From NCBI GenBank assembly GCA_977862235.1, contig OZ374557.1:3720001-3784000 (forward strand): DNA of 64,000 nucleotides, given 5' to 3'. This document shows positions 21,080-47,007 of this stretch, piece after piece; the first letter of the stretch is position 1, and each line of letters begins with the position of its first letter. Both the position numbers and the translations under genes were made by a program. Source of the stretch: Dudresnaya verticillata (Eukaryota). A model generated the notes under the pieces. It worked only from the letters and a program-made list of their open reading frames with translations, did no database searches and was not told the origin of the DNA.

Positions 21080-21754
21080 TGTGGTGTAGTGAAAACGCAC
21101 TAACTCCGAGACGGGCAGCTGGCTTGACTTTCCTTAACGGACGAGAGAAACACTACCTCCACGGGGTGGTAGAGCAGTCCGCACCGAGATGGGAGAACAG
21201 CGAGCGGCTAACCGAGACGGATATTGGGAAGCAACAGACAAGGGGGTGGTATAAGTGCCGGGACGGACTCCGTAACGGTGGTGGTGGTAGACCCCGACGG
21301 GCTCGGCGCGGGGAAAACCATAAAGGACTGGGCTAAGGTTGCTTACCCGTTTACCTTAGGAGCCGCTGCGGTGCCGCCCTGATATACAAGTCAGGGTGGC
21401 ACCGAGCGGTCCGGTCCGTGGGGGCCAGACCCTAGTGGTCTGGACCCATGGTGGAATCGGCCCTGCTGGTCCCAATCTCCGACACGGACATGCGCAGCAT
21501 TCTCATTGGCTGGCGCACTACTCTACACACTGAACAGATACTCACTAAAAATAAAGAATAAATACTACAAATACTCCGCTACGGTTGATGCGCTACATTG
21601 CTGTAAAGCAATGCATACCAGCGTACAGCAATGCGCACAACATCCGACACGGTTACACGTTGCCCGATCATCAGCGTGGCATATTGCCACAACATCTGTT
21701 ACGGTTGGTTCGCCGTGGGCATGCCGCATGCACGCCACGGCTCACTTCACTACA
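21080..21754 (-). repeat. 3' LTR of family A
   Basis: TG...CA ends, homologous to 45737-46411, adjacent to polypurine tract (minus strand ttaaggagggggggtc). Confidence 0.92.
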
Positions 21755-21795: not shown

Positions 21796-22438
21796 TGTAG
21801 TAGTATGGCCCGTCAAGGCAGAAACCCGCCAACCGGCAAGGACAGCTGTCCTGACGGTGCAAAACACACTAGCTTGGGTAGCTCGGGAAAAGGTTGGTAG
21901 AGACTTTGAAAGGCACAGAGCCTAAGGGAAAGGGGGAAAAGGGGCGGCGCCACCCAGCTAGCACAGCGCAACCGTCGTGCGGAGGCAAGTCTCGTAAAGC
22001 ACCTGAAAGGGAGGTTACGGTGAGTCCGTGAATTCCAGAAAAAGGGTAAAGACCCGAAACCCACCGTGGGTTCTATTCAGGAGGCCCCTGCTACTCAGGG
22101 GCCTATTAAGTGTACAGAGCCGAAAATGTTCTTACCTCCTATGAGCTATTCTAAGCTATTCTAACTGTCATTATTAATCTAATTATACTGTTGTCAGTTA
22201 TAAATACGGATTAGTGGTAGTACCGCGTCGGGCCGCGTGAGCGGCCACAATTAATTACCCAATGGCAATTTGCCATCAGATTTGGTGCCAGCAGGGACGC
22301 CAGCGAGGCGCATCGCCCTTACAGCGCACGGTGCTTGTGCGCGCCTTACAGCTTGATGCGCGTGGGCGTCTTACACCTTGATGCGCACAAAATGACTTAC
22401 AGTGCGCCAGCACTCCTGATGCGGCTCATTCTTCCACA
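21796..22438 (-). repeat. 3' LTR of element B
   Basis: Direct repeat of 34496-35138; adjacent to the PPT. Confidence 0.96.
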
Positions 22439-22982
22439 CGGCCCCCTTGTTAAGGCTGAGAGACCCGCAAAGCCAGCAAGGCTGTTTCTATTGGCCCCGT
22501 CTTGGGCGAGCTTGAAATCCCAGTGGGGTATTGGGCCAACGGCGCACTTGTAACCGCCGCCACTGGCTGCCGTTGTGGAACCGTTCACAGTAGTGACAAA
22601 TCACTTGCTTCGCCGTCCCAGTCTCGACGGCGCCCGTCTCATAATTGCGACGAACTCTGTGCGCTTTCGCGCGGAAAGCCCCAAGCGGCTGCATACTTCA
22701 GCAACATCACAGCGGCTTCCGCTACCATTCCCGGGACACATCCGCACCTCGCTCCACCATCGTCAGCCGATCTTCCGCGCCTTGCGTCCGGCGTCCGGCG
22801 ACGCCATCTAGCTTTCGCTTCTTTCTTCCGTTGCGGAGGTCTGCGCGAGTTGCAGTAGCGGGACCCGCTGTACCCTGTCGCCACCCGTGCACCTCTTCCT
22901 ACGACCGGGCCGTCACGTGCGAAACACTCAAGAATAGCCCCTGTGGCTGGATAGAAGACCTGTTCACCCCGTGGAAGTCACG

Positions 22983-25273: not shown

Positions 25274-26321
25274 CTGAGCCAAGTCCTTCATGGCTTGAGG
25301 CATCGAGCCTAATATGGGTTAGAAGCCTATCTCAGCGGCTTAACCGCTTAACAATAAACCTCGTTTTGTATGCTTAACCCAACGCCTCTTGTAGGCTTCG
25401 AGCCTTCACGTCCGATGCCACTTTCCTCCCTAGTGGGACAGTGGTGCCTTTGCTTGTTCAGACACCGTGGGACAACCTATTATTGGTTGACCAATACGCC
25501 TCACTAGCGTCTGTCGCTGCCTGAGAGCGTGCCAGCAATATCCACAGTCGCTCTACAGTGCAGTGCGACGCACTGTAGCGCGTTTTGGCGCGAAAGCCTG
25601 TATGGCTGTTAATTGGCCACATCACTCCGCCACCTTGCTGTAGCCTTTCTAGCAACTCACGGACTGTGCCCACCGCCACAACCAAGAGGTATTAGTCAGC
25701 GGCATCGGCTTCTTCGACCGCGTGGCTTCCAGAATTCTCAGCGTCAATACGCTTGGCGCTTTCTCCTCCCCTATCAATGGAGTCTTACGCGGTTCCAAAC
25801 GTCCTCCCCAGTAGATGGGGGAGTCGGAGTATCAAGATTCACCAGTCTAGGATGGGGCGTATTTGTGCCTTACACCCTCACTGGGTTTGACGCGAACGCC
25901 GTTTTTGTGGGAGGTAGTTGGATCAACCTCGGGCTATTGTCCCGTCCATATTGTAGCGTATCGCTTTTGGGGCAGTCCAGCCGCCCTCAAGCGTCATAGT
26001 GCTGGTAGTTATAATTGCAATAAATTATCAGTTGGCCATCGCCGCTGTTCCTTACCCGCACCGGGGGGAGAGTGGTCGCCATAGCTTTTGCCTTTTCAGG
26101 ATTGAGTCCTTGGGGTAGCCATGTTCCGGCCACTCTGTCTAACAATAGCCTCTGTGCTCGAGGTTGGCCTCAACCTGGATCTGGCCTTGAGCCAGGTTGA
26201 TAACCTTATGCATAGCGTTAGTCGCTGTACACAGGTGCGCCTCTAAAGTAGGATCAACTCCCAGCTCTGAAGCGCCCGCTCGCTTTGGCAGAACTCATCT
26301 TCCAGAGTTCACCTCTTGATT

Positions 26322-26508
26322 ACATCTATCCATTTCCATGCTTCTATCCAGGATCCAATCCTTCTAACATCTATCCATGATATACATCTATCCAGAGTCT
26401 TGACTCTTCTTTCATCTATCCATTTCCACATCTATCCAGAGTCTTGACTCTTCTTTCATCTATCCATTTCCACATCTATCCAGAGTCTTGACTCTTCTTC
26501 CATCTATC
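26322..26508. repeat. Minisatellite in the 3' non-coding region of B (44-bp unit, about 3 copies, built from CATCTATCC sub-repeats)
   Basis: acatctatccagagtcttgactcttctttcatctatccatttcc starts at 26384, 26428 and 26472, with further catctatcc copies upstream. Confidence 0.85.
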
Positions 26509-26775
26509 TGGTCGCATCTTCTGAGAGGCTAACCTCTGCGTCTGCGCGCCCGGTCATGGGTGCATCCCACACATAGTCCATAGGCTGCATTCGTATTTAC
26601 GCGAGGGCGTCGGTTTCGGCACCCAGAACCAAAGTTCTACCTCCACTCACATCAGGTGAATCTTAACAATCGGGCGATCCGACCCCATACAGCTTAACTG
26701 CTGTTTTTGGTTGGGCGCACCAGATGGAGACCACTTGTAGGCCCGGTGCCTTACTCAGCGCGCGTGCTCATCACG

Positions 26776-29700
26776 CTAATTGTCAGGGAGAGGTATCCCT
26801 TTTTGGCGGTGATACCTTACAACCACATTGTGAGGGAGATGACCCTTTGGCTCCCAAGTGTCCCTTGAAGCCGGGCTCTGGAACCACCGCACACGATAAA
26901 GGTGTGTGTCGGGGTCATAGGAAACAATCCTTTCGTACACGTGTTCGCGTGGTGGTGCCCTCTTGAAGCGCGAGAATTTTCGACTTGACGTCCCTTCAGC
27001 CACTGTCGGCGGAGGTGATGACGCATCCACACCCTCATCTCTAGGAGCATTCTCCTGTCGTTGGGGGACAACAGGTGCAGTATGGGCGCCGCTAGGTTGC
27101 GCATCCCCACCTGTGTCAGCCAGTGTCTCGCCTTCAGCACCAGTGCTTCGGGATGGGCCGGTTCATTACCGCCTGATGCGGTGTTCATCGGGGGCCCAGT
27201 GCCGTTTGTGTTGGGCCCGTCGGTTGGCCCAGCTGGGCTACTTGAAGGTGCTGCACCTGTCTCCGGTGGCATTTCCACCACCGTGGGAGTCATGTCTAGT
27301 GCCAGCGGCGCTTCGTGTGGCGATGGAGCCAAAGTGACTCGGTCCAAAGAGATTGTTTCTCTGTCGCCCTTGATGCCGAGAACCACCACATGCGTTCCTC
27401 TCTCGAGGACCTTATATGGCCCAAGGGCTTTCGGGAACAGTTTCCCTTCCCTCGCCACGCCTGAAGCGTCCTTCAATTTGGTTTCCCGTTCGAGGAATAC
27501 CCACGACCCAGGACGTACCCTTTGGTTAGCCGGTCGAATGCGGCTATTAAAGTTGGTTTCATAGCGCTTTTGCGCTAGTTGCATCCTCGGCAGAGCCGTA
27601 TCCATGAGCTTTTCCAGCCGAGCGGTTAGGCGCTTCTTGACGTTCGTAGCGGGTATCCCGTCAATGTCTACCGTTTCCGCTTGTTCCAGTAGTAGGGAAG
27701 TCGGCGGATTTGACAAAACCAAGTCAAAAGGGGCTAACCCTGTAGCGCGATGCACTGTCGTATTGTAAGCGTACGTGAGCGCTGAGGTGAACTCGTCCCA
27801 GTCCCTCTGGTCTTCCGCTATGAAGTGGCGAAGGCCCGTTAGGATGGTGCGGTTGAACCTCTCGGTTTGCCCATTAGTTTGGGGATGGTATGTCGACGTG
27901 AACATATTCCGAATCCGTAGGATATCGCACACGGCGAGGAAGAACTTAGAGGCAAATTGAGATCCATTGTCTGAAAGGACGTAACGGGGCGGTCCATAGG
28001 TAAAGACCCAATGGTCGCAAAACGCCTTCGCCACTGTATAGGCGGTTACCGTTTTCATCGGTATCGCTCGCGTCAGCTTTGAGAAGCGGTCCGTCATAAC
28101 CAACAGGAACTCGTTTCCTTTCCCGGAGCGGGGTAACGGGCCCAGGATATCGATTCCTACGAACTCTAACGGCATGGTCGCCGGGAAGAGTTTCATATGC
28201 GAAGCATGTTTCCGCAACTTCACCCGCTCTTGTGCGCATTTGACACAATTACGCACGGTGGCGTATACATCCAATGCCATCTCTGCCCAATATACCTGTC
28301 TTCGCAGGTTATGATACATCCGGGTTCCACCTGGGTGTCCCGCCATCTCGGGGTAGTCGGCTAGGTGTAATGCCCTTTCCTTAAGAGAACGAGGTATGAG
28401 AACCTGTATCGCCTTGTCGATATACGACTTCCGGACTAGGAGTCCTCGTTCGTCCTCGAGATAGCAACCAGGCTTCCCGGCCTCGAGGTTCCTTCGGACC
28501 CAGATACAGAATTCACCTGTTTTCTGCTCACGGAGCAACTCTTCTGTGGTGATGAGGGATAATCCCTTTTGTCCAGATTCCTTCTCGGCCACTTGGGTGA
28601 TGACCACTTCGTCATCCGAATCGGACTCATCGACGGGTTCAATTTCCCATACTTCCAACGATCGCTTGTTGGGCTCCGGTCGCGACCTTTCGCAGGGTTC
28701 GTCCCTCGGATCAGTCTCGAGGACTAGACACGGGATTTCCAAGTCCGGTTCCCATGGCGTGAAGCCATACGTGGGCAGCCGAGATACGGCATCAGCAATC
28801 TGATTCTTTTTGCCTTTTCGGTACTGGACCGTGAAGTTGTATTCCAGGAGGCGTAATCTCCAACGGGCCAACCGTTCAGAAGCATCGGTCATGCTCATCA
28901 TCCATTTCAGCGCCTGATGGTCTGTATACAGGTCAAAGTGGGACCTTTCTAGATATGGTCTGAGCAATTGTGCAGCCCAGACCACTGCGAGGCACTCCTT
29001 TTCGCCTACAGAATAATTCTTCTCTGCCTTCGTCAGTCCTCGGCTCCAGAAGCCTATCGGGTGTCGAGTCCCGTCTTCTTCGGCTTGCATCAGCGCGCAA
29101 CCAATTTGGTAGTCGCACGCGTCGGTATCCACCGATAGGGCCTTACCCTCTTGTGGCAACCTAAGAATAGGAGGCGCTATTAGCGCTGTCTTCAACAATC
29201 CGAACGCCTCGCGTTGACGTTCATTGAACTGCGGTAGTTCAAAGCCCACTTCCTTCTGAAGGAGGGCATTGAGCGGAGCTGCCACGCGAGCGAAGTTAGG
29301 CACGAATCGCCTGTAGACGTTGCATAGACCGATGAAAGACCGCAACTGGGTCTGGGTGGTCGGCTCCTTGAAGCCTTCGATGGCTTGCGTATTCTTAGTC
29401 GCCACTTCTAATAAACCCGGACGGATGACGTGCCCTAGGTATTCGACACTCTTTGTGAAGAAGTTGCACTTCTTGAGTTTCAAGGAGACCCTGCTTCTTG
29501 TAATACAGAGAGAATCTCTTTTACGTGCGTGACATGCTCGTCGACAGTCGCAGAGAATACGATAATATCGTCGAGGTATACGAGGCACGATTTCCATCGA
29601 AATCCTGATAAGAGGATGTCAACCGTTCGTTGAAAGGTCGCCGGAGCGTTGCATAGCCCAAAGGGCATCCTGCAGAATTGGAAGCAGCCCGCGTGGCATG

Positions 29701-31299
29701 TAAAAGCAGTTTTATGCTTATCCTCCGGGGAAACCGGAATCTGCCAGTAGCCTGAGTTGCAGTCCAAGGTTGTAAAATATTGGGCCTCGCCCAGGGAGTC
29801 CAAACACTCGTCCATGCGCGGCAGAGGATACGTATCCTTCACTGTAATCGCGTTCAGCTTGCGATAGTCAACGAAAAAGCGGAGGGACCCGTCGGACTTC
29901 TTAACCAAAACGACGGGGCTCGCAAACTCAGAGCGTGCAGGCTCTATAACGCCTTCTTTGAGCATTTTGTCGACCTCATTCTGTTCTGCTTGACGGGCTT
30001 TAGGGCCCGACCGATACGGTTGCGTAAACACAGGTTTCGAACCTTCTTGAAGCTCAATACGGTGTTCGGTCACCTTAATGGTTCCGAGTTGTCCGTCCCA
30101 CATACTGGCGAACGGTTTAAGCATCTTGCGCACGCGACGCCGATCCGAAGTGGACAGATGTTCCAGCGCGAGGTCATCGACCGTAATAGCTGTTGTCGCT
30201 GATGTCGCGATTTTGATTCCAGGCTTAGAGTCTATATCCGTCTTCAGAGCAGCAGCAAGCCCCGCCCCCCCTACATCGGAGAATGTTTCGGACGAGGGAA
30301 GCGAGTCACTGTCAGGAACATTATCCTCGATGGAGACAGTGTAGACCGGCGTCTGCGTGGGCGCCGGTACAGCCTTGCCAAGGCTTTGATTCTTGTAAAG
30401 CCGTTGAGGACGCGAAGAGAAGTTCGCGACCTTGACGTGGAAGAGACGGTTCTCTTCAATGTTGACGATTCCATTCGTCAAAACGACTTGACGGCGTTCG
30501 TATAAGCGTGGAAGGGATTCCAGGAAATGTGTTCCTTTGGCGGAACAGGTAACAGGAACCCATGACTCACTGCCGGGCAGTAAATTAGTAGTTTGTGCGA
30601 CGCGAATGAGTCGCGAGGTAGGTAACGGGGGAACGTCCATTGGTTCGTCAGACCTGCCCTCACGGGGTATACCGCATCGGCGGCGTAGAATTGGGTGAAT
30701 GGACCCGTCGCGAAGAACCATGTTCTGTTGGCGGACGCGTAACCCTTCCACGTGGGTATCGATAGACGTGCAACCCAATATAGCATCTACTGCCAATGCC
30801 CTTACGACAACAAAAGGTTGCCGAACGGTGTAGGACCCGAGCCTGATTATCAGGGAGACTGTTCCCAGTGTAGTTAGTCGGTGACTTGACGCGGAGGTCA
30901 AGTTCAAAATTGACCGCGTTGTAGAAATCCGTTTCTTGTCTTTCGGTGATAGAACATCCGCGCGGATGAGATTAGGGCCCGCCCCTGTATCCAGTACGGA
31001 GAGCACACGAGTAAGATCGTCAACAGAAGTCCCGATGGACGCGGCTACTTTATAATTGTAGCGCGACAAGGAGCAAACGGGATCCTTACAATACTCATGA
31101 TACTTCCGTCCAGGGGGTAAGCCCACGGGACGCGCTAAGATCTTCTTGGGAAGAGAAGTGACAGATTCACTGACAACCGGTCGATCCGTTGAGGAGAAGC
31201 TTTCGAAGCTGTAGCTCGAGGAGCTTGATTCAACGTACCGATCGGGGGGTTCCGATGCCACCTGAGATATGTGGTGTACCGAAACCGGTTCCCCCCTCG
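26776..31299 (-). pseudogene. pol: pol of element B (PR-RT-RNaseH-INT-chromodomain), frameshifted
   Basis: LDTGAGPNLI (PR); MPFGLCNAPATFQ and YLDDII (RT); TDACDYQIG and TDHQAL (RH); GHPGG..CVKC, DNGSQF, HPQTNGQTER and GPY (INT); YERIVSY..YRVRWFQSPASRDTWEP (chromo). Frameshifts near 29490 and about 27100. Confidence 0.93.
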
Positions 31300-33987
31300 C
31301 TAGTTTTTCGCCTTCGTTGCGGGCGACCGCGGTAGCGGTGGAGGTGGTGGGAAGGGACGAGGCCCTTGGCGTGGTGACCTTGGCGTTTGCCTCGGAGCGT
31401 CGATGGGGTGGTTCAGTCGAGGTTGAAATTGAACCTGTCGATTTCCCCCTTGAGTTGCACCCAAATTTTGACGGGGCTCCATCCGTTGCCCCATGGGCGG
31501 CCCGGCGGGCACTTGCTCGTTAGCGAACTCCGGCAGTCGGCCAACGGTCGCCAGCCACGCTTTTTGCTCGTGTGATAGTTGATGAAACTGTCTTCTTTTT
31601 AAAGTCTCAAAAGACTGCTCATCGGTTCGAGCCAAATGTGGACAGTTGGGCTTTTTATGGCCAATGCCGTAGCATTCGAAGCAGATATCATTGGGTTGAT
31701 CTTCAACCGTCACCCACCCAGGGCGTTGAGTCCTGGTTGGCTGTGCCCAGGCTGGGAGCCTATTGTTGTAGTTCTGAAGTACCGCGTCAACTTCACCGTG
31801 ATAAGGTTAGTCGTAGTAATACTGTGTCGACCATGAATCCGATTGGGTCGCTGTTGATGGTGGCGCTTCGCTAGCGATGGCAGCCACGACTGCGTCTTCG
31901 CTTTCCGCATCAGAGCCGCTGCTCTTTGAAGTATCCGAATCGGAGGCGGATGCATTCTTCGCCTAGCGAATTAGGAGCGCCCGCCCTGACTTGTGGGTAC
32001 GAACCTTCTTTAAGGTCTTCCTTGGTAGCGTCCTATTCGCTTTTGGCGTTCGTCCGCCACCCACTAGCGCCCGATGGGAATCTCCGTGTGCAGTCGCAAG
32101 CTCGACGTAATCCGCCAGTCTGGCAGTCCTTGGGTCCAAGGACGACGTACTTAAAAGCGGCTTCACCGCTGGTAGCAAACCCCGAATAAACCTGGTTATC
32201 AAATCTTGTTCGGTGTATACACCAGCGACTCGACGCGCTTTGTTCTGCAACCTTCTCGAAAAGGTTACCTCGTCCTCATCTGGCTCCTGCGCCATTGTGT
32301 CCATCTCAGAGGCAATCCTCTCAATATAGACGTCCTTGGCATATGTCCGAAGAAGGTAATTCACGGCTTCGGGCCATTCGGTGAAACCACCATTGTCGTC
32401 ACCCGCAGCGTCAAAATTCGCTTCAAACATATCCTTCGCATCCTTCTCGAGGAACTCGGGGATGACGAGGATAGCGGCACCTTCGCTGATATGGGCTTGA
32501 TCGAGCTGCCTCTTCAGCGTGGCTAAGAAGCCAATAATTGACACCGGGTCACTCCCATCAAAACGGCGACTCCGCATAACGGACTTGACATGTTTGATTT
32601 TCTTCGTGGTCGCCTCGGTCACCTCGGGCCCGCGGTAATCATCCAGGTTCAATAACCTATACCTTCTATAGGACAGCACCTGTATGAAAGCAGGATTCCT
32701 AGGAGTCAGCTCCTTCACACCGCAACGTCGGGGACCCCTCCAAGAAGACCATGACGGTCTAGAATGCGAACGGGAACCCGGTCCTTCTTCATCCGAGGGA
32801 CCCGGATTAGGGTGAGACCCTGACCGAGGATTCTCCTCGTGACGATGACTCGAATATCGGTCACGAAGAGAATCCACTTGGTCGCGGTGCGTAGAAGACC
32901 CAATTGGTCTTTTACACTGGCAACCCAGTTGGCAACGGCCTCCATCTCCTTCACCTTGGGACCCGCTGTCCGACCCCCTATGGGGTAGCCTCCTACGCCT
33001 GTCGCGCGTGCCGCGATGCACTGGTGAGCGTCGTCTCATGACTTCAGGGATATTATCCCTCTCGCGGGTTACGCGCCGCATCTGTAATTCCAGAAAAGCG
33101 ACACGACGCTTCTCCTCATCGAGTTCTTTCCTTAGGACCTCGATGGCTCTGTCCTGTTCAACGCACCGTGCGTTGTCTACGTTAAATTGAACGTCCGCAA
33201 TAGCTATTGCGGCTTCTGTCCTGGAAAGGTCGGCAGCCTTCGTGGCTTCATCTAATTCAAGATGAACCGATTCCAACTGGTCCCCCATTGAGTCCACTTG
33301 GGCTTGTAGGGTCTCGACCCTTTCCTCTTCTAAACCCCTCAAGGGGCGTTGTTGGCAACGAGAAATGACCATTTCTTGGCACTTAGCCAGTAGCTGGTCG
33401 TCTCGACGAGCGGTGGCGTCGTCGAAATAGCGTTTCACCCGTGTGAGGGTTTCATCCGCCTGGCTTTCAAGCAGCGCCAATACGCTAGTTCCGAGAGCAT
33501 TCTCGATGCTGGTCTCAACCAATTGACCAATTTCGCGCTCCGTAAAGCACCGTTGGTCGCTTGAGTTTTCCTTCGTTCTCATCGGCATTCCGATATCGGG
33601 TGGAAGCGATGAAGTCGTTTCTTCTTCTAAGGCCAATCCGCCTGTGTCGTGCTGGCTGTAACCAGCTCGAAACATCGGCGGCGGCGGCATACTAGGGTCC
33701 GGACCCTCATTCGCACCAATGTTGGCGGTGCTTGCGGCTGCAGTCCGGGCCGTATTTTCTCCTTCAGGGATCTGTCCCTTTCCATGAGCAGACGGGTCTT
33801 CGTCTCCTGGTGCGCCCGCCATTCGGGGCGGGCGTTCCACTTCTCCTACTGTAGGACCTCGAGCCAAAGCGGCTATTACAGCGCGGGTTCTTGCTCCCGT
33901 GGTCCTCACGGAGGATAAGCTGCCGGTACGGCTACCATCCCGGCTTGTTAAGCCTGGGCGGGTGGTTTCACCGTTAGATGTCGGCAT
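31300..33987 (-). pseudogene. gag: gag of element B (frameshifts near the 3' end)
   Basis: 674-aa ORF with coiled coil and capsid-like FDGSDPVSIIGFL...QEPDEDEVTFSRRL; downstream zinc knuckle CFECYGIGHKKPNC. Confidence 0.88.
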
Positions 33988-34476
33988 CTTCTAACCGAGG
34001 TTGTTATCGACAACCTGAAAACGTAGGATTCGGTCCTGTGGTTGCACTGATCGGGGAACTTCTCCCTAGGATGGCAAACTTCTCAGAACCGTAGTTCTCG
34101 GGGTTACGGGCGATTCTGTCCGTGTGGAACTCCCAGCGCGCACGCCCGCACAGCCCGTATACAGACGTATTTTTTGATGACAGGTATTACGATAACCTGC
34201 AGGAAGAGCTCCTTGAAGGGGCGTCACTCCACGACTAGGATCTTGTTCCTTGTACACGATTAAAAACCGCAGAAGCGGTGGCCGTTGCTTGCCTCGAATT
34301 TGACGCAACTTCGAAGCTTGATATGAAGCTGAGAAACCGTCGACACTTGGCCGACTAGGATTTCACCCTCAGGAAGTAGTTCCTTGAATTCTTGCACGGG
34401 GAATTCTCGTCCCGTGGGAAGGTCCGAACGACGACTTGCGGATGAGGTAGTAAAAAGGGGCCGACCCTGAAAACGA

Positions 34477-34494
34477 TTCTAGGTCGGGAGACCA
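34477..34494 (-). promoter_or_regulatory. Primer-binding site of B (TGGTCTCCCGACCTAGAA)
   Basis: 1 nt inside the 5' LTR; begins TGG, complementary to a tRNA CCA end. Confidence 0.9.
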
Positions 34495-34495
34495 C

Positions 34496-35138
34496 TGTAG
34501 TAGTATGGCCCGTCAAGGCAGAAACCCGCCAACCGGCAAGGACAGCTGTCCTGACGGTGCACAACACACTAGCTTGGGTAGCTCGGGAAAAGGTTGGTAG
34601 AGACTTTGAAAGGCACAGAGCCTAAGGGAAAAGGGGAAAATGGGCGGCGCCACACAGCTAGCACAGAGCAACCATCGTGTAGAGGCAAGGCTCGTAAAGC
34701 ACTTGGAAGGGAGGTTACGGTGAGTCCGTGAATTCCAGAAAAAGGGTAAAGACCCGAAACCCACCGTGGGTTCTATTCAGGAGGCCCCTGCTACTCAGGG
34801 GCCTATTAAGTATACAGAGCCGAAAATGTTCTTACCTCCTATGAGCTATTCTAAGCTATTCTAACTGTCATTATTAATCTAATTATACTGTTGTCAGTTA
34901 TAAATACGGATTAGTGGTAGTACCGCGTCGGGCCGCGTGAGCGGCCACAATTAATTACCCAATGGCAATTTGCCATCAGATTTGGTGCCAGCAGGGACGC
35001 CAGCGAGGCGCATCGCCCTTACAGCGCACGGTGCTTGTGCGCGCCTTACAGCTTGATGCCCGTGGGCGTCTTACACCTTGATGCGCACAAAATGACTTAC
35101 AGTGCGCCAGCACTCCTGATGCGGCTCATTCTTCCACA
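34496..35138 (-). repeat. 5' LTR of element B
   Basis: Direct repeat of 21796-22438; adjacent to the PBS. Confidence 0.96.
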
Positions 35139-35242: not shown

Positions 35243-38200
35243 ATGTCAGGGGAGAAGACTGTGGAAGAATGAGCCGCAGCAGAAGTGCTGGCGCACTGTA
35301 AGTCATTTGTGCGCATTAAGGTGTAAGACGCCCACGCGCATCAAGCTGTAAGGCGCGCACAAGCACCGTGCGCTGTAAGGATGATGCGTCCCGCTGGCGT
35401 CCTTGCTGGCACCAAATTTGATGGCAAATTGCCATTGGGTAATTAATTGTGGCCGCTCACGCGGCCCGACGCGGTACTACCACTAATCCGTATTTATAAC
35501 TGACAACAGTATAATTAGATTAATAATATGCTCTGTACTTAATAGGCCCCTGAGTAGCAGGGGCCTCCTGAATAGAACCCACGGTGGGTTTCGGGTCTTT
35601 ACCCTTTTTCTGGAATTCACGGACTCACCGTAACCTCCCTTCCAGGTGCTTTACGAGCCTTGCCTCTACACGATGGTTGCTCTGTGCTAGCTGTGTGGCG
35701 CCGCCCATTTTCCCCTTTTCCCTTAGGCTCTGTGCCTTTCAAAGTCTCTACCAACCTTTTCCCGAGCTACCCAAGCTAGTGTGTTGTGCACCGTCAGGAC
35801 AGCTGTCCTTGCCGGTTGGCGGGTTTCTGTCTTGATGGGCCATACTACTACAAAGACCAAGCGCTCACCGTCGCCCTTTCAACCGACACGGCGTTCCCGC
35901 GCTGGTTCCACGACTAGGGCGCAGGGCGTGCTAACCGTTACGGATGCTTCGACTCAAGCGTCGGCTTCTTCCTCGGCGGCAGCGACGCGACCCGCAACGG
36001 GCGGTCGTACGAGCGTTGCCGTGACGGAACCTTCACCGGCTCCATCAGCGAGCCGAGGGTGGTCGGTCTATGATCCGAATCGGTTTGCTGCGAGCGCAGC
36101 CACAAGGACCGCGCTACCAGGGAGTGCAGCGACCCACCGTGACGGAGAGGCGCCAACCAAGGACCGCGATGATGCGTTCCATCGTGGTGGCGAGGAGCTC
36201 AGCTTGGCAGACCTACCGGCCATTCCGTTACGGGCACCATCGACACCGGTATCGACGCCGAGTCGTAGGATGGTGGCTAGTCCACATCCTTCATCAAGTA
36301 CACCGAGACGGATGCGTGGGCCCCCGCAAACCAATCCACCTGCACCGGGGCCTTGGTGGCCGGTGGTGCATACCCGTGACGGAGAGGGCCCTGTCCCGAG
36401 TGGTTATTGGCCGGGGTACCACTTTGATCATCGCGCGGGGCGCCCGGCTAGAACCAATGCGGAGAGGGCAAAGATTAAGCCCCCGATGACGGTGGACTAC
36501 TTCATCGAGAAATATCCAACCGTCTTGGAAGCAAGAAGGTACAAGGCCGTCATGGCACAACCCTTCAAGGCGAATCAACGCATTGGCGTTGTTCCGAATC
36601 GGGGAGAATTTGTATGGCAAAGCCGATGGTTGCATGGCTATTGTCAAGCGCGGACCTCTACCGTTTCGGATTTGTTGTGGTATCGCTGCCATGGGGAGGT
36701 AGGATATACCGCCAAGGTGAGTCACCTGTTGGCCAAAGGTTTCCGTCTCCGGGGTGCACCGGTCGGAGTGCAATTCATTTGCTTCGACCGCCCCTAGGAC
36801 CAGTCGGTATATTGGTTCCGCTATGCCGATGGGTGGAAGGACGATGCCGCGACGGAACACCGTTTGCGAACTCGTTCCCGTGATGGAATACAAGTTGGCT
36901 CGCCAATCCTGCAGACGTGGAATACTAAGGAGTTCTTCCATCTTCCGTATCGGGTGCGTCGTGAATTGTACCTTACAGCTCCGTCATGGTGGGAGCGTTA
37001 TGAGGTGACCCGTTGGTTGTCTGTCCCCACGCCTTCCGTCGTAGCATACTTCTCGGCGGACTTCCTCACCGAACGGGAGTGGAATCATAAGCATCCGAAC
37101 GGAGAGCGTCCCCCGAATCAGGATCAGCTCGATGTACTGTGGCGCATCTTCCGATCGGAATGGGCCATGTTGATGCTCTTCTCGTGGCTCCAAGTGGCCT
37201 ATTACGGAGTGCGGTATAACACCAAGTTAACCGACTGGCGATGCTTCCCACGGGATGAGGATGACCTGCCCGGAGGAGACTGTGGCCGTATTTCTCAACT
37301 TCCCGTAACGGTGATCGCCCTAATTCGCCAAATCGGCGTAGCCGATTTGGTGACGGGGTCGGCGTACACTCTCCATCGGGTGGAACGTCTTTTATCCGTA
37401 CACGGAGAGCAGGTTTGGCAACGCACTCCAGGCTTCTTGGGGTATAGTTGGGACGAGGACCGTGTCCTATCGGTGCCCCCGCTTAGGCCCGGAGTGGGTG
37501 AGCCATATTTCCTTCATCGAGAAGACCCACGTCCGGAATGGTTGGCATTAGAGGTGAAGGCCCATCGGGGCTATGCTCCTCGCCAAGCACCAAGGGATGC
37601 GTACCGTGACGGTTTGGGCGGGGCTGAAGAGTGGGGGAGCTGTCAGGAGGCAGCGGGGCGTTCGCGTACAATCGACCCGCGCGATTCCGTTTCGGTGAGG
37701 CAGCAAGAGGCTGACCCCTTCCTGGAAGAACAGGAGGAGGTCATGTCCGTGGCCTCAATGGCAGCGGGTAGCGAAAAGACCCCCGCTCCAATCCTTCCGG
37801 TGACCGCGACACCCACGTCGCGCGATGTGGATCGTGATACTAATACTCCCGTATCGGATAAGGCCCCAACGCCCATAAGCGTGGTTGCGCCGACTATGGC
37901 GGTGTACAAGCCTGCGGCACCATCCAAGGAGGGAGCCTCAAAGGAACAGACCGTTTCGGGAGTGGCGCCGGATACTGTGCCGGCGGCACTGTCTCCTGCG
38001 ACGCAAATGCCTGCAGCCGCTGAACCGCCCCCGCCAAGTGCTCCGCTGTCGGCGCCCACTCCCACGCCAGCGGTGAGTGAGGCACCGATCACCGTATCGG
38101 CAGTGGCTGCAAAGCGCCCAAGTGTTGGGGCAACTGGAGACAAGCCCTCGGTTCTCGCGTCAAGTCGTGAACCGTTACGGAAAAGCGATATCGCCTCGCC

Positions 38201-38384
38201 AGATAAGGACTTGGATCCACCGCTGCGGAATGACGTACCTTCACCCGAGTCGGGACCATCCGTATTGGTGGTTTCCTCAACGGAGCATTCACTCGAAGCC
38301 GGGGTTAGGGATAAGCCGTCGATCTCCCCGAAGGTACAGTTTCAAGAAGATGAGGATCCCCCTTTACGGTTCCGGCTCATCTAG
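35243..38384 (+). pseudogene. Antisense accessory ORF of element A (about 847 codons after removing the solo LTR; one internal TAG at 36795-36797); unknown function
   Basis: ccaccATG TCA GGG GAG AAG AC[solo LTR]C AAG CGC restores MSGEKTKRSPSPF. ORFs 35781-36797 and 36864-38384 are in the same frame, separated by a single stop. Confidence 0.78.
35260..35852 (+). mobile_element. Solo LTR of family B, inverted relative to element B, TSD AAGAC
   Basis: Reverse complement of the B LTR with an internal deletion of about 50 bp; TG..CA ends; AAGAC at 35255-35259 and 35853-35857. Confidence 0.95.
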
Positions 38385-38407
38385 CCGCTACGGAAAGTGG
38401 GTTACAG

Positions 38408-38689
38408 GTGCTGCGAGGCATTTGCCGTACGCAGCGCTTCCCATTGCCAGGATCCGTTCAGGAAGCGCTAACCTTAGCGGAGGGGCTAATGGAACAGATA
38501 ATTCATCTCCGCGCAGTGGTCCGTCGTCAGCGTCGGCGCATGGATAGTGCGATTCGCGTCTTGGGAGACAATACGCAGCGCGTATTCCAATCGGATCCGA
38601 GTGGGGAGCCCGGCTTACGAACGGGTCAGGGGAGCAACGAGGAAGATACAGTTGCCCCTGCTCCGAAGCGGCGTCGACGTAACTCTTAG
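38408..38689 (+). CDS. Short ORF (possible last exon of the A antisense gene): coiled-coil-like segment and C-terminal PKRRRR
   Basis: VLRGICRTQ...EALTLAEGLMEQIIHLRAVVRRQRRRMD...APKRRRRNS*; preceded by ttacAG. Confidence 0.4.
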   Translation: MLRGICRTQRFPLPGSVQEALTLAEGLMEQIIHLRAVVRRQRRRMDSAIRVLGDNTQRVFQSDPSGEPGLRTGQGSNEEDTVAPAPKRRRRNS

Positions 38690-38710
38690 AGTTACAGTTC
38701 GACGATCTCC

Positions 38711-41700
38711 TTAACGGTTTCCATTATGCCTCGATCTTAGCTTGCGATAAACATTGTGTGTTCTGCTTACACCCCAGCACCCCAACTGTCCGTTACGGTG
38801 AGTGACGTGTTGGATTAGCACGTCGCCGTGGCTTACCCTTAGCGGATTTCTTTTTTTTTGCTTCCAATATCGGTAGATGAAATTCCGCGGCAACTCCTCC
38901 GCGGGCTCAAACGTATCCTGCTCCGGAGGGTAACCATACCAGCGGACTTTGTATGTCATCCCAGTAGGTTCGTCGCGGTGACCGACAATCTTGTCGAGCA
39001 CATATTCCGTATCGGCTTGCAGTGGTTCCGTCGCGGAGGGATTAGTACCTTCAGAAGGAGGTACTACTGTAGTACCTTCTGGATGTGGCACTACTTCTCC
39101 GTAGACGGTTGATGGCGTGACAGGCGACACTGGTAAGGGTGCCAGCTGAACCGCAACTCCGATCGGAACCTTCGTTATGCGATCGATACTTACGGGGATC
39201 AATACCCCTTCCTTGCGGATTGTAACAACATGTTCCGTTGCGGATTCCACTTCATAAGGCCCCGTGGCTCTCGGAAGGAGTTTCTTCATTTCCTGAGCCA
39301 CCTCGCCCACATCATCCGGTTTGTCTTCCAATCGGTCCCGTTCACGGCGTTCGGCAGGCCGCAAGTTATGGGGCGGCCTGTCGACATAGACTTGATCTCC
39401 GTTACGGATTATAGGCCTAAAGCACACCTTAGGTCAAACAGTGTCTTGGCTTTTTGCTGAGCTACTGTTTGCTTAGTGCGCGCTGTCTGGAGCGCATACC
39501 GTAAACGGCGCATGGTGCTCCGCTTCTGTAGCACCGGGGTCATACGCCCTTCCGTAACGGTTTCTTGATGCTCGACAGGAGCCCCTCGTACAATAATGTC
39601 CGATGGGTGGCGTGTCAGTACCAAATCAAATGGCGTTGTTTCCGTAATACGGTGTACCTGCATATTGTACGCATATGTCAACGGTTGCAGGTACAAATCC
39701 CAATCGGAGTGATGATCCTCAACGTAATGGCGCAAACGCTGAGCGATTGTCTTATTAAATCGCTCAGCTTGCCCATTTGTCTGCGGATGGTAGGCAGCGG
39801 TGAGCAGGTGCCTGACTCCGAGTAAGGAACATACCGCGTCGAAGAACTTAGCAGTAAACTGCGGTCCATTATCGGTTAGGACAAATTGGGGTGCGCCGTA
39901 GGCGTACACCCAAAAGTCCAGAAAGGCGTTAGCCACCACAACGGCTGTTGTTGTCCGTAACGGAATACAGCGCGTCAGTTTAGAGAACTGATCGGTTATT
40001 ACCAAAACGTAGACATAACCCCGTTTTGTCTTCGGAAGTGGCCCGAGAATGTCGATAGCGACAAACTCCAAATGTCCGCTAGCGGGGAAAAGCTTCATAA
40101 ATCTTTGGTTCCGAAAGCGGGTTCCCTTTGTCTTCACGAAGGAGCGACATGTCCGAACGGATTCAAATACATCGTTGGCCATATGAGGCCAATAATAATC
40201 CTGTCGGAGTGTATAATACATCTTAATTCCGCCTGGGTGACCCGACATCAGGGTGTAGTGGGATAAATCCAATACCCGTCCACGGAGTTCGCCTGGTACC
40301 ACCTTCTGCAGAGCAGCATCCAATTGGGACTTGCGCACCAAGAATCCGTTACGGTCATAGTCAAACTGGGATCCAGGGGAGCCTACCGTATCGGCTTTGA
40401 GACGACAGAAAGGGTCTCTGGTTGCGCTTCGAGAAACTCTTCCCTGGTAATTGTCTCATCCTTAACGTCGGATTCTTGGATTACAGTAAAACGTGACGGT
40501 ATTGCGTCGGGCTTGTCGGGGAGGCGGATGCACTCCCACTGGCAGGCTCCACGGAGCATATTACGTTATTTTCCGTAGCGGTTTCTTGTGATGTGGGCCA
40601 ATCGGTTAAATATACTCCATGCTCATATAACCCGACGACGGTGTTTTCGGCGACAAAGCAAGGTATTTCTTCATCCAAAGGTCTATCGTCACCGCCATCC
40701 GTTCGGAGTCGCGACATCCCATCGGCGAGTTGATGCCTAATTCCAGGACGGTATTGCACCTCGAATTCAAATTCCGATAGGCGGAGCCTCCACCTGGCCA
40801 GGCGACCAGATGAGTCTGCGAGGTTCAGGATCCACCGCAGGGCATCGTGATCCGTTCGGAGAATAAACTTGTCACCGTAAAGGTAGGGTCGGAGTGTTAA
40901 CATGCTCCAGACCACGGCTAAGCATTCCTTTTCGGTTGTCGTATAATTTTTCTCCGCATCGGTGAGGCTTCGGCTCCAATATCCAATAGGGGGGTGATCG
41001 CCATTCGGTTGTTCCTGCAGAAGGACACAGCCGACTTGATGGTCACATGCATCAGTGTCCAACGTATATTTATATCCGTGACGGGGTAGAGCCAATATAG
41101 GTGGAGAGATAAGGCGTCTCTTCAGTTCCTCGAAGGCTTCATATTCCGTATCGGATAATATTCCAAACTCAAAGGGTGAACCCTTGCCGGTTTTCTTATT
41201 TAGCGGTGCTGAAATCCGAGCGAAGTTGGGTACAAAGCGACGATACACGTTGCACATTCCCAGGAAGGATCGCAATTCCGTTTGGTTAGTCGGCGGCTTC
41301 GTGACCTTAACGGATTGGATATTTCGATTATCCACTTCTAATTTTCCGGGACGGATAACATGCCCCAGGTATTGTACAGACGCGTTGAAGAAGTCACACT
41401 TTGACAATTTCAACGTTACCCCAGCGGATCGTAAAAGCGTAAGGACTTCCTTCAGGTGGTGGAAATGTTCCGTAACGGTTTTTGAGTAGACAATTACATC
41501 GTCTAGGTAGACGAGGGTAAATTGCCATTTAACCGTAGAAAGGATTATATCCACTGCCCGTTGGAAGGTTGCCGGTGCATTTTTCAATCCGAATGGCATT
41601 CTCCCAAAACGGTATAAGCCAAAATGAATAGTGAAGGTAGTTTTGTCCCTTTCCTCTTCCGGAATCTCGACTTGCCAATATCCGCTATTGCAATCCAGGG

Positions 41701-43132
41701 TGGTAAATACAGTAGCTTCCCCAAGGGAATCTATGCACTCATCCATCCTGGGCAAGGGATATGAGTCCCTAACCGTTACGGAATTGAGCCTTCTATAGTC
41801 AACACAGAACCGCATGGTGCCGTCCCTTTTTGGAACGAAAAACACGGGGCTGGCCCACTCCGATGAGGCTGGTTCAATTACCTTAGCGGAAACCATGCGA
41901 TCGATCTCTGTCTTTTCGAGTTCTCGCTGCTTATGTCCAGCACGGTATGGGCCTTGATATACTGGCTTAGCTCCGGGAGTTAACTCGATGCGGTGCTTGG
42001 CAGCTGTAATGTTGCCAAGATCGCCACTCCACATTGACTTATATTCCTCGAGTAGGGTTAAAATCCAGTTACGGAGCGATGCTTCTTCTGTGCCGATCTG
42101 GACTTGATCCTTCCAGTCGGTAGTATTTGTATTTTCCGTTACGGGTTTGCTTACTTCCTTGTCGTGAGGGGAGATGCTGCTGGCCTTCTCGGATGTAGGG
42201 ATAGAATTAAATGATTGAATAATTCATCCCCCCTCCTTAAATGGAGGTATACCGTCAACGGTAAAAATAGCAGAAGGGGCAGCAGTAGCGAGGCCCACGA
42301 CAGTAGATTTGGGCAACCGTACCGGCTTGTTAGAAACATTAGAGACCCAGATCCGAAACGGTGTGTTAGGTACAACATCCATAATATCATTAGCCATTAA
42401 CGTAAGGTGCTTAAAAGCCGGCTTAGGATTATTTTGTAGAAAGCATAACCCACCCGTGGGGGTATTGACCGTTACGGTGGTTTGAGTAATAGGGGGAATA
42501 AGGGTAGATTTCGCTAAACGAATTTTCTGAGAAACCGTAGCGGTAGAGAGAGGTGAGGGCTGTAGGGTTGCAGTGGTTCCCGTCTTCGGAATTTTGGCTT
42601 GACCAACAAGGGATACCGGTGGGTAATGATGAAAAACAACTTTCCGTAACGGAGGGAGGATTGTCTTCACGTAGCGGTCGATGAAGGTAGTTCCCAAAAT
42701 ACAGGGAGCCGCCAAGTTCGCGACCACTAGAAAATGGACGCGAGCACGGAGCTCTCCGATACGGACGAAAAGTTGGATCTGACCAATAGGGCGTATAGCG
42801 CGATCAGACGCATCCCGTAATGGAGGACTGGCTGCTGGGCGTATGAGTGGGAGCCATTGACGGGGAAGGCGCCGGGCACTAATGAGATTGGGCCCAGCGC
42901 CAGAGTCCAAGACGGAGATTAAAGGAAGCATCACGCTATCTGTCCGTCCCACGGTAATTTGCATCTTGTAATTTTGATGTTGCATAAAGCAGATAGTATC
43001 ATTGGTCTGATAAGCCAATAGGAGTTCCGTAACGGTATCTCGCTGATCCCCTGGCGGGTCCACACTCGCTAGAGGTGGAACGCCGTGAGGCGGGGATGGC
43101 GGCGCCCTTACGCATCCCCCCTTGCGTTTTCC
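38711..43132 (-). pseudogene. pol: pol of element A (PR-RT-RNaseH-INT-chromodomain), frameshifted
   Basis: LDSGAGPNLI, MPFGLKNAPATFQ, YLDDVI, TDACDHQVG, TDHDAL, SGHPGG, TDNGPQF, HPQTNGQAER, GPY, and chromodomain EYVLDKIVGHR..YKVRWYGYPPEQDTFEP. Confidence 0.93.
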
Positions 43133-45588
43133 GAATTCAAGGTTGCACCAGTCGGATCCGCCTCCACGGGCTCGCGCAATTCTGCGAGTTCCACTCGGTC
43201 ATGGTCCTCCACCGATAGTATCGGCGCATTCCGTTGCGGAGGGGGCATTTGCGGTCTGCCCCGATTCCCTTGCGGATTCGAACTGGTTCCTACTACGAAC
43301 CTGCGACCTACAGGGTAGTGCTTCTGGAAGTTGCGCTCGCGCTCTTCCATAAGCCTAACCCGATCGGAGTCATGTATCCATGGGCAAACAACGTGCTCTG
43401 GCGAAAGGCAGATGCGACAGTTACCACTTCCGTAAAGGCGTCGGACCCGAGGATCCGACTCATCCCGTAGCGGAGGTGCTGGTTGCTGCTATCCTCGCCC
43501 ATCGTGGGCATTATTTCCGTAACGGTGACTCGGCTTCTGTTGGGGGCCAGGAGCCGGTCGAGATCCACCATAGGGGGGACCTTGCGCGCGTGGAATCCTG
43601 GGCGGAGTAGGGTGGACGCTTTGCGGGGGCAAGGAGTACGGGGTAGAAAAGGTAACCCCCGTGCTCGTACCCGTAGCGGCACCGTGGCCTCCCTCGACGG
43701 CTAGCACTTGATTATCCGTAGCGGAAAGATTCCCTTGCGACTCATACTGTACATCAGATACGGAATCCAGCGACAACACCTTAGACGGGCGCGCTTTAGT
43801 GCGCCCATCAAAGACGTGAGCCGGAACGGTTTGGCGTCGAGCTGCCCGATGGGACTGACCCAGGCCAGTCGCATAGCGAGTGATGGCCTGATAATCCAAC
43901 TGGGAATGCGTCGCTAGATAATTTCTCATCTGTTGACGAGTACCCGGTAGGAGTCCTTCAACGAACAGTGACTTCAATGTCCGATCGGAAAATACTGTAC
44001 CACAACGGAGAGCCTTGGCCCAAAGCTGGTTCGAGTACTGCTCTTCCGTCATGGCGGATGTTTGCCTGAAGTTGCTGATATCCGTATAGGCTTCAGCAAT
44101 CACTTCATCCGTAGCGTAGGTTCTCAATAAAACGTTCACCACCTCGGCATATGTGCGGAGCATCTCGGACTTCTCCACGTCAACCGCCATGGTACCTCCA
44201 GCAAGCCTAGCCTGTAGAAGGGCTTCGGCCTGTCCTTTAAGGAAAAACTGGAAGCACCAGATGGCAACCCCTTCGGCGATGCCGTTGATGTTACAACCGT
44301 CACGGAACTTAGCGAGAAATCCCAAGACGGTAATAGGGTCCGTCCCATCGAATGTATGGGACGACATCTGGACGTCGAGTTTCTTCCGTATACGGCTCAT
44401 GTTCTTTGAGAACTTAGAGCCGTAGGTCTTACTCCTCTTATCCAATCGGTAGGTGCGGTAGTCCAGCGCCTTGACAAACTTGTCATGTAGCGGCCGGATT
44501 ACCTTCACCTTTCCGGATTTGGCACCGTGTTTTCTGGTCCGGTGCCTATTCTCTCTATCCGTTACGGAAGAACTCTCTGAGTCTGAATCCGTAGAGGTAG
44601 AGGAGTCATGCCTTTTTTCGCGTTTCCGCGATCTTCTGTTTCTCCTCTTGCGGCGGCGGTGTTGGCTATCCTCTGAGCTGCTCTCATTGAATTCCATACC
44701 GGATTGGTGGCGTCGTCGCTGGGTGTGGTCGCCCATGTGCGACCGACGGGGAGGGTCAGAGCGGGAGTGTCGGGCATCTCGTTTATGCCGACCTCGACTG
44801 GTCCTCCGGCTCGGATGGGGTGAGCTGGACGCGTCGCTGAGATGGTCGCTGCCTCCACCTGATCATTCCGGAACGGTATAGCGCTCTTGCTGATAGCGCC
44901 CTGGCGTAGGCACATCTACGTGTCCAGGAGAATACCGTAACGGTGGCTGAGTGTGTGTTGGTCCCGTAGGGGCGTATTGATGTTGAGAATCCGTTACGGG
45001 AGCCGGTGGCAGTGGCCCAGAGGGTACTGTGCCCGGCGGCAATCCCATAACGGAGGGTTGTTGCGGCTGCTGCGTTCTTCCCTCGACCGGGAATTCATTC
45101 CATAACGGTGGTTGCTCAGTGAAAGCTTCCGTAGCGGGAGGCGTTGCCATGCCGGGAGCAATCTGGCTCTCGAGCTCGGCGGCCACCTTTTCCTGTAGGA
45201 TCAAAGCTTGCACTATCCGAGGAAGGTGCTGCTCCAGATAGGAATTAACCAAAGACGGAACAGTTTCCGAGAGGGATATCTCCACCTCTTTTACCATTCC
45301 AGGTTGTACTTCCAATCGGAGATGCTCTAACACCCTAGGAAGGACCTCCGACAGGACCCAGTGGACCCGATGGGATTCCGGCTTGGGTTGCGGAGCTGCC
45401 TTCCTCGAGGCGTCTGATCCGACACGGGAACGGGGAGCTTTACCAGCAGCACGCTTTAGGATGTCTTCTGGGTTCTCCACTCCGTAACGGATTTCACCTC
45501 CTTCACTGCGCAGACTGCGCGCAGCGGGGGTAGTGTCACCCGCTTTTGGTTCCGTAACGGGAGGGTCAGCGTGTTCTTCGTTCTGCAT
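43108..45588 (-). pseudogene. gag: gag of element A, frameshifted
   Basis: Starts MQNEEHADPP just inside the PBS; FDGTDPITVLGFL capsid-like region homologous to B gag; ends ...ENARGDA*. Confidence 0.85.
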
Positions 45589-45713
45589 GATACCTTAACG
45601 GAACACAACGGTTGTTCTTGCTTGTCTATCCAATATTCCGTAACGGGTTGTCGGTACAGCCGAATTCCTACTGTAGCGGATTTCGACGGCTGTTTCTTCT
45701 AGCCGTGACGGTG

Positions 45714-45731
45714 TTCTAGGTCGAGAGACCA
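45714..45731 (-). promoter_or_regulatory. Primer-binding site of A (TGGTCTCTCGACCTAGAA)
   Basis: 5 nt inside the 5' LTR; 17/18 identical to the B and C PBS. Confidence 0.88.
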
Positions 45732-45736
45732 AAAGA

Positions 45737-46411
45737 TGTGGTGTAGTGAAAACCCACGAACTCCGAGACGGACAGCTGGCCTGACTTTCCTTAACGGACG
45801 AGAGCAACACTACCTCCACGGGGTGGTAGAGCAGTCCGCACCGAGATGGGAGAACAGCGAGCGGCTAACCGAGACGGATATTGGGAAGCAACAGACAAGG
45901 GGGTGGTATAAGTGCCGGGACGGACTCCGTAACGGTGGTGGTGGTAGACCCCGACGGGCTCGGCGCGGGGAAAACCATAAAGGACTGGGCTAAGGTTGCT
46001 TACCCGTTTACCTTAGGAGCCGCTGCGGTGCCGCCCTGATATACAAGTCAGGGTGGCACCGAGCGGTCCGGTCCGTGGGGGCCAGACCCTAGTGCTCTGG
46101 ACCCATGGTGGAATCGGCCCTGCTGGTCCCAATCTCCGACACGGACATGCGCAGCATTCTCATTGGCTGGCGCACTACTCTACACACTGAACAGATACTC
46201 ACTAAAAATAAAGAATAAATACTACAAATACTCCGATATGGTTGGTGCGCTTCACTGTTGTACAGCAATGCGTACCAGCGTACTGCAATGCGTACGACAT
46301 CCGACACGGTTACACGTTGCCCGATCATCAGCGTGGCGTATTGCCACATCACCCGTTACAGTTGGCTCGCCGTCGGCGTGCCGCGTGCGCGCCACGGCTC
46401 ACTTCACCACA
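45737..46411 (-). repeat. 5' LTR of family A
   Basis: TGTGGTG...CACCACA terminal inverted repeat; homologous to 21080-21754. Confidence 0.93.
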
Positions 46412-47007
46412 GTCGCGCGATGTGGATCGTGAGACTACTACTCCCGTATCGGATAAGGCCCCAACGCCCATAGGCGCGGTTGCGCCTACTATGGCGGTGC
46501 TCAAGCCTGCGGCAACATCCGAGAAGGGGGCCTCAAAGGAGCAGACCGTTTCGGGAGTGGCGCCGGATACTGTGCCGGCGGCACTGTCTCCTGCGAGGCA
46601 AATGCCTGCAGCCGTTGAACCACCCCCGCCAAGTGCTCCGGTGTTGGCGCCCACTCCCACACCAGCGGTGAGTGAGGCACCGATCACCGTATCGGAAGTG
46701 GCTGCAAAGCGCCCAAGTGTTGGGGCAACTGGAGACAAGCCCTCGGTCCCCGGGTCAAGTCCGGAACCGTTACGGAAAAGCGATATCGCCTCGCCAGAGA
46801 AGGACACGAATCCACCGCTGCGGAATGACGTACCTTCACCCGAGTCGGGACCATCCGTATTGGTGGTTTCCTCAACGGAGCATTCACTCGAAGCCGGGGT
46901 TAGGGATAAGCCGTCGATCTCCCCGAAGGTAGAGTTTCAAGAAGATGAGGATCCCCCTTTACGATTCCGGCTCATTTAGCCGCTACGGAAAGTGGGTTAC
47001 AGGTGCT
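46412..47007 (+). repeat. Fragment of a second family A copy (homologous to 37817-38412, tail of the antisense ORF)
   Basis: SRDVDRETTTPVSDKAP...EDPPLRFRLI* closely matches the end of ORF 36864-38384. Confidence 0.92.

Follow-up and report, generated by a model that had tools for sequence, protein, structure and literature searches.

A family-specific palindromic word and related inverted-repeat marks in red-algal Ty3/gypsy retrotransposons that share an antisense gene

Element A and its surroundings

The stretch of Dudresnaya verticillata DNA analysed here (contig OZ374557.1 of assembly GCA_977862235.1, positions 3,720,001 to 3,784,000; hereafter the window, 64,000 nucleotides) contains a retrotransposon, element A (35853..46411, minus strand), that is studded from end to end with a short palindromic word confined to its own family and that carries, on the opposite strand, a broken copy of a gene found across its clade. 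Element A is a chromodomain Ty3/gypsy retrotransposon with the order protease, reverse transcriptase (RT), RNase H and integrase, the chromodomain lying after the integrase; stops and frameshifts now disrupt its coding regions. Its 5′ long terminal repeat (LTR; 45737..46411, minus) has TG...CA ends and seven sites of the motif described below, and is adjoined by a candidate primer-binding site recognised from sequence (45720..45731, minus). The gag gene (43489..45594, minus; Retrotrans_gag, E 2.9e-5), whose frame is broken by one stop, precedes an aspartyl protease segment (42224..43198, minus; a weak match, E 0.035), reverse transcriptase with RNase H (40481..42223, minus), integrase (39409..40455, minus) and the C-terminal part of integrase with the chromodomain (38711..39433, minus; E 5e-10). 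Named relatives of its pol are known in Chondrus crispus and in Agarophyton chilense, that of Chondrus (XP_005718191.1) being the nearest. Element A also clusters with the Chondrus protein in an RT tree whose root is a distant element and which served only to group loci; the relatives point to a florideophyte red alga as host.

Two further pieces of the family lie in the window. A 3′ LTR (21080..21754, minus; eight sites) is 95.9% identical to the 5′ LTR, the two perhaps stemming from different insertions since the flank of the former is unlike that at 46412; and a fragment of the antisense gene from a second copy (46412..47007, plus; seven sites) is 94.7% identical and truncated by an LTR of a third Ty3/gypsy element, element C, at 47008. 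A second element, B (21796..35138, minus), is nested in A, where its target duplication is GCCCA; the antisense gene of A is in addition interrupted by a solo family-B LTR (35260..35852, plus; target duplication AAGAC). No CCHC zinc knuckle was found in element A or element C; the Gag of element B has one (31683).

A palindromic word confined to family A

The exact word CCGTAACGG/CCGTTACGG (CCGTWACGG) occurs 25 times in the window, 23 times within 35853-46411, and every copy lies in family-A DNA: that at 21270 belongs to the second LTR and that at 46767 to the fragment of the second copy, whereas elements B and C and the host DNA have no copy. An earlier note, made from the sequence alone, had listed precisely these positions and had reported the word missing from element B and from host DNA; each copy proved exact, the list complete and the absence real. 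The expected number is 0.81 when an order-3 Markov model is trained on the sequence of A, and 0.8 in the codon shuffles described below.

A broader motif, W-CCG-TWA-CGG-W, can be counted through CCG-N3-CGG, of which there are 73 in 10.6 kb against 7.2 expected, with a mean gap of 145 bp along the whole element and a spacing more even than random (P 0.018). The density is 5-14 per kb in the LTR, leader, gag, pol and antisense gene, and all three reading frames are occupied (VT, RNG/RYG, PLR), which agrees with the note on both the regions and the frames; 60 of the 73 sites lie inside segments of open reading frame (ORF). The motif hardly varies at its outer CC and GG and tolerates change most at position 4. 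Within CC-N5-GG the inner pair is G-C 73 times, C-G 8, A-T 5 and T-A 4, and the half-sites are independent, which is the behaviour of an ordinary position-weight motif (odds ratio 0.8). Because the arms do not covary, the mark of A is a word; a reading of it as a hairpin finds no support in covariation.

Selection on the word

The counts were compared with 500 synonymous-codon shuffles of eight ORF segments of A. These segments contain the exact word 21 times, against 0.8 +- 0.9 (maximum 5) after shuffling, and CCG-N3-CGG 60 times against 8.4, as compared with 7 against 5.2 in element B; the claim that protein sequence does not explain the motif thus survives. The word is realised at 21 of the 28 places where the peptide permits it (0.8 expected; 0 of 4 in B), and such permitting peptides are themselves in excess, 28 against 4.1 +- 2.2 in residue shuffles, compared with 4 against 3.9 in B, therefore the protein itself has been bent towards the word. 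The flanks of the 23 copies are unrelated (on average 12, at most 19, of 40 bases matching), and internal duplication is ruled out as the origin of the sites.

Substitutions between family-A copies spare the motif: one of 90 motif positions has changed against 58 of 1179 others (P 0.07), and at CpG positions one of 60 has changed inside the motif and 22 of 179 elsewhere (P 0.009), a deficit that could be due either to selection or to protection from deamination. At the protein level, several sites have peptides in the nearest pol relatives that are still compatible with the motif, and others do not; TVTE is kept, and residue changes such as DRNG/DRYG and PRHG/PRYG remain compatible with the motif, the central base allowing them. 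Among 161 related loci with an RT alignment, the core measured 2.5 kb or more in 151, and in the cores scanned none of the 151 has two or more exact copies of the word. The mark of element A is family-specific, was gained independently at each site at a cost in codons and amino acids, and is conserved; that it is real and selected can be held with high confidence.

Inverted-repeat marks in element B and related families

Element B does lack the word of A but bears a mark of its own that the earlier note had missed. Its internal part holds 89 inverted repeats of the form AG-NN-(5/6 nt)-N'N'-CT against 5.7 in dinucleotide shuffles, or 109 once 7-nt spacers are counted, and each of its LTRs holds five; in codon shuffles the comparison is 57 against 4.8. 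AG..CT sites show no excess when only one inner pair matches (33 against 33) or neither does (25 against 50), and the marks, taken with 5-7 nt spacers, are more evenly spaced than random (P <0.001). A 44-bp tandem array after pol (26296-26508) has one B-type inverted repeat per unit, so marks in B can also spread by local duplication; CATCTATCCA, once considered as a dispersed mark of B, was rejected since it represents this local array.

Among the 151 loci, 27 (many of them closely related to each other) hold short perfect inverted repeats at twice the expected number or more, and each of the 27 has an RT identity of 47% or above. Measured against codon shuffles, CT-NN-(4)-N'N'-AG is found 25 times against 3.3 in locus L085 and 30 times against 3.3 in L088, and CG-ended inverted repeats 32 times against 5.6 in L086; other groups have weaker preferences. 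Pairing of the arms is required in B, L085, L086 and L088, and what these elements share is a multitude of small potential stem-loops. Sister families, in short, carry a homologous antisense gene and different symmetric marks, mostly perfect inverted repeats of 4-5 bp with fixed ends and span.

L088 and L085, which are 70% identical, have 10 of 23 pol sites in common with unchanged arms, and four-fold degenerate sites in arms are more conserved than others (14 of 21 identical against 173 of 468, P 0.01); the effect is not significant in gag or in the pair L086/L089. Silent divergence was compared over pairs that are not independent. Of the six groups that have an excess, three show about half as much of it in arms as outside (0.11/0.21, 0.15/0.28 and 0.17/0.37), their loops being either not reduced or reduced less; in two groups it is less reduced (0.54/0.69 and 0.61/0.67) and in one not reduced (0.21/0.19). 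Farther away, near-palindromes within one mismatch occur in the pol ORFs of L072 (GTTG-N-CAAC, 11 against 1.4) and L112 (ACTG-N6-CAGT, 21 against 5.4), hinting at similar marks outside the red-algal clade.

The antisense gene family

The antisense gene of A (35243..38689, plus), with low-complexity flanks, had been described as an ORF; an ATG does stand at 35243, but the frame is cut by the solo B LTR and by stops at 36795-36797 and 38382-38384, the latter common to the second family-A copy, and the basic tail PKRRRR that ends at 38689 lies in another frame. Its conserved domain of about 340 residues is located at about 36410-37520. Element B has a homologous gene in two frames (22938..25273, plus): pairwise BLAST gave no link between the A and B proteins, and a profile built without B detects both frames (E 4.8e-15 and 8.8e-6). 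The same profile finds ORFs in 26 loci, ten of which match by construction of the profile, and the gene is clade-wide; no match was found in element C. A full HMMER search with the A protein returned 61 homologues at E <=0.001, including proteins of Gracilariopsis chorda; a word-index protein search with the domain and a direct search of viral contigs with the A protein and RT found nothing, and an Atlas search with the B protein gave no usable match.

The domain has conserved Arg, Trp, Tyr and Glu residues; some members of the family have coiled-coil-like tails, and of 18 long homologues 7 have basic C-terminal patches, as do L085, L086 and L088. A structure predicted for the homologue P0123 from 71 aligned rows is mostly helical (predicted local distance difference test, pLDDT, 92), the single-sequence fold of the A protein being unusable (pLDDT 35). 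The domain matched neither a Pfam family nor a PDB sequence; with the family model, Foldseek gave no match in PDB or viral structures (best E 1.7 and 1.4), and neither did the VIA fold search (best Z 4.3 over 52 residues). The antisense protein represents a new family; missing fold matches do not by themselves prove a novel fold. A second antisense protein family occurs in L002, L028, L031 and L076, a sub-clade with 3-nt-spacer inverted repeats, and its profile aligns only weakly to that of the main family (probability 44%). Loci L085-L094 include several algal-type retrotransposons that are nearly complete and whose gag, pol and antisense ORFs are intact; they come from a bacterial genome bin, where they represent eukaryotic contamination.

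DNA or RNA as the target

In 31 elements chosen for their excess of marks, the ratio to codon-shuffled sequence is 2.76 for perfect 5-bp stems, 1.26 for those with one G-T and 1.11 for those with one A-C. The coding strand has no excess of GNRA loops (20 against 28) or UNCG loops (7 against 9), folding energies are the same on both strands, and spacer preferences are mirror-symmetric (C second and G second-last in B, TKMA in L085/L088, WGCW in L086, TWA in A); no strand-specific loop motif was found on the packaged strand, and Rfam gave no match. The two-fold symmetry of the marks therefore favours a double-stranded or strand-neutral DNA target, and since the arms in B have to pair, the form read there may be a small cruciform or a hairpin. 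On such patterns, recognition at the level of DNA seems likely.

The foremost rival holds that the marks are stem-loops dispersed over the genomic RNA and read by Gag or by the antisense protein for packaging, dimerisation or nuclear export. Arms that must pair in B, L085, L088 and L086, a density of one per 110-330 nt and a Gag with one CCHC knuckle in B and none in A would all suit it, as would the slight coding-strand excess of G-T over A-C just given; 4-bp stems, moreover, tolerate G-U poorly, because of which RNA retains some standing as a target. However, single changes to G-T and to A-C are about equal in frequency, the loops have neither a GNRA/UNCG nor a purine bias, the strands do not differ in energy or loop preference, and the word of A, with no covariation, would amount to a 3-bp stem of about -2.4 kcal/mol, so that we regard this rival as unlikely. 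The packaging signals of MS2, satellite tobacco necrosis virus (STNV), parechovirus and hepatitis B virus (HBV) are likewise dispersed RNA stem-loops, read by coat proteins (PMC6281560), and B, L085, L086 and L088 resemble them in the many small degenerate stem-loops that run through coding sequence; the viral signals are strand-specific and read mainly through their loops, whereas here the stem-end bases are fixed, the pattern is strand-neutral and the palindrome of A is fixed.

It is less plausible still that the marks act on complementary DNA (cDNA), in single-stranded intermediates or the pre-integration complex, where integrase or RT would read them, for example to protect the cDNA or to block self-integration. 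Both strands of retrotransposon cDNA go through single-stranded stages; this, the symmetric multimer as which integrase acts and the perfect Watson-Crick arms without G-U, which suit DNA hairpins, speak for such a role, but the insertion sites in the window (GCCCA, AAGAC, GTCGC and GTGCT) are unlike the marks.

Family-specific self-tags as a tentative account

As to who reads the marks, an element-encoded reader is likely. A host DNA-binding protein, for whose benefit to expression the sites would have accumulated, ranks with the cDNA proposal as improbable: the A word is indeed a position-weight motif with independent half-sites, and it includes TAACGG, which we take to be a MYB core; however, the marks differ between A, B and C in one window despite their common host, TAACGG/CCGTTA is barely raised outside the palindrome, and the interior of pol is an unusual place for an enhancer, host DNA in the window being free of sites. 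Fold-back template switching by RT, which would create short perfect palindromes without function, is very improbable. Such a process gives perfect, strand-neutral arms, and compensatory changes no commoner than chance and the turnover of sites (10 of 23 common to L088 and L085) speak for it, but it cannot yield one fixed word at 21 of 28 possible places in A or fixed end bases and span in B, nor can it yield the reduced silent divergence of arms (0.11 against 0.21, 0.15 against 0.28, 0.17 against 0.37) or their conservation between L088 and L085.

The single best account, which we put forward tentatively, is that the marks serve on DNA as self-tags of each family and that the antisense protein reads them in an anti-silencing or licensing role. 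The antisense product would bind W-CCG-TWA-CGG-W on its own DNA and coat copies of its own element; recognition is placed on DNA because both strands are equivalent, and the paired-arm type may be read as a small cruciform or hairpin on either strand. With less assurance, the reader could be a dimer of the antisense protein that works in the nucleus and, with least, the outcome might be that the element's own copies are kept active against host silencing. More marks per copy would mean better replication in cells expressing the cognate protein, and this advantage would drive both site-by-site accumulation and divergence between families.

Several observations weigh against this account of self-tags. 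That the arms must pair in B is difficult to square with ordinary reading of duplex DNA and fits a single-stranded nucleic acid; double changes that compensate each other occur no more often than by chance (35-50% against 28-52% in control groups), and one control group shows reduced silent divergence in arms of its own (0.09/0.15, the other 0.16/0.16). Even spacing is not significant for the 23 exact copies in A (P 0.06) or for L085, L086 and L088. The antisense protein matched no known DNA-binding fold in the searches made. The expectation that other families with the antisense ORF would have private motifs was borne out by B, L085, L086 and L088, but six of the 26 gene-bearing loci (L001, L003, L005, L011, L026 and L067) have no hairpin excess (ratio 0.9-1.1) and weak words only, such as CCTCGAGG in L003 (20 against 7.8, at most one mismatch), and the comparison of gene and mark includes no marked element of proven gene absence. 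Finally, no part of the window shows CpG depletion (observed/expected 0.8-1.2), thus giving no sign of strong CG methylation to escape. Red algae are described as silencing elements through methylation, small RNA and H3K27me3 (PMC8566409).

A bolder version, which we consider doubtful, is a clade-wide code in which a protein of new fold would read DNA symmetry in the form of mini inverted repeats, small cruciforms or hairpins that number from tens to more than 100 within coding sequence, families being keyed by end bases and span, A having hardened to a fixed palindrome, and the whole serving as a licence against silencing.

Comparison with known systems

Sequence-specific counter-silencing is established for plant DNA transposons. 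In Arabidopsis, VANDAL transposons combine VANC proteins with short family-specific motifs, and the accessible text shows VANC binding and gives the motifs as YAGTATTAY and AGTTGTCC, neither of them a palindrome; they occupy non-coding DNA and have spread through tandem repetition (PMC5735166). Within the limits of that text, the likeness to element A consists in an accessory gene encoded by the element and an accumulated short motif that differs between related families. The differences are that VANDALs are Mutator-like DNA transposons and A is a Ty3/gypsy retrotransposon; that the marks here are symmetric, are embedded in coding sequence between unrelated flanks, and were built one site at a time by point mutation; and that most families have complementary arms with fixed end bases rather than a word. 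The VANC-like self-recognition suggested in the earlier note is partly supported: a selected, family-specific mark stands beside an accessory gene, and B and relatives combine homologous genes with different private marks, which such a system would predict. The protein is by Pfam neither VANC, PMD nor TRP28, and the marks are coding and not tandem. Searches of Pfam (71 rows), PDB and fold libraries gave the antisense protein no kinship with VANC/MAIN, with which a remote kinship is still compatible; by analogy, the present system is closest to VANC in logic and not a member.

Retand elements, also Ty3/gypsy, carry antisense TRP28 ORFs throughout their lineage, with a function that is not known (PMC11963269). 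As in A, the antisense ORF lies between pol and the 3′ LTR across the lineage, and the accessible part of that report proposes a nucleic-acid-binding regulator for TRP28; unlike A, Retand is a non-chromovirus lineage of flowering plants whose family-specific repeats are tandem arrays, and the same part describes no element-wide mark. TRP28 (PF04195) was not matched in the antisense ORF over the 71 rows scanned. The literature searched, with subscription journals and supplements largely outside its scope, yielded no description of the motif, the inverted-repeat marks or the protein family in red algal elements.

We know of no target for the lineage-wide antisense ORFs of LTR retrotransposons. 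Here a gene and a candidate target are found together, the target differing by family within one genome, and the role of such ORFs is directly testable by cross-binding since intact natural pairs exist (L085 and L086); PXF39757.1 is another intact natural domain. A protein that reads short inverted repeats whose inner sequence is free would, if true, be an unusual case of nucleic-acid recognition, in a well-modelled domain that matches no known structure. Short words also accumulate in coding sequence, at a cost in codons and residues, in the HIP1 of cyanobacteria and in DNA uptake sequences; those are genome-wide and host-driven in bacteria, in contrast to a mark confined to one retrotransposon family. 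Element A also shows that an overlaid code can dominate synonymous and even amino-acid choice in a retrotransposon.

Other features of the window

The first quarter of the window (1-16006) is a tandem array of a 3622-bp unit in more than four copies with zero mismatches, which represents a very recent amplification or an assembly artefact; the single ORF tested from the unit had no match in Pfam. The host gene at 18140-19942 (minus) encodes C2H2 zinc fingers at its C-terminal end and has a His-rich repeat. The fragment at 20359-21079 (plus), into which the family-A LTR was inserted, is degenerate and transposase-like (pogo/Tc5-like by eye), and that at 59675-60457 (plus) is by eye an integrase-like piece of another retroelement; neither has a Pfam match. 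Element C (47008-57000), inserted into the second family-A copy, has a mild excess of CGTCGA (24 against 6.6) and of CG-ended inverted repeats with a 7-nt spacer (15 against 3.9).

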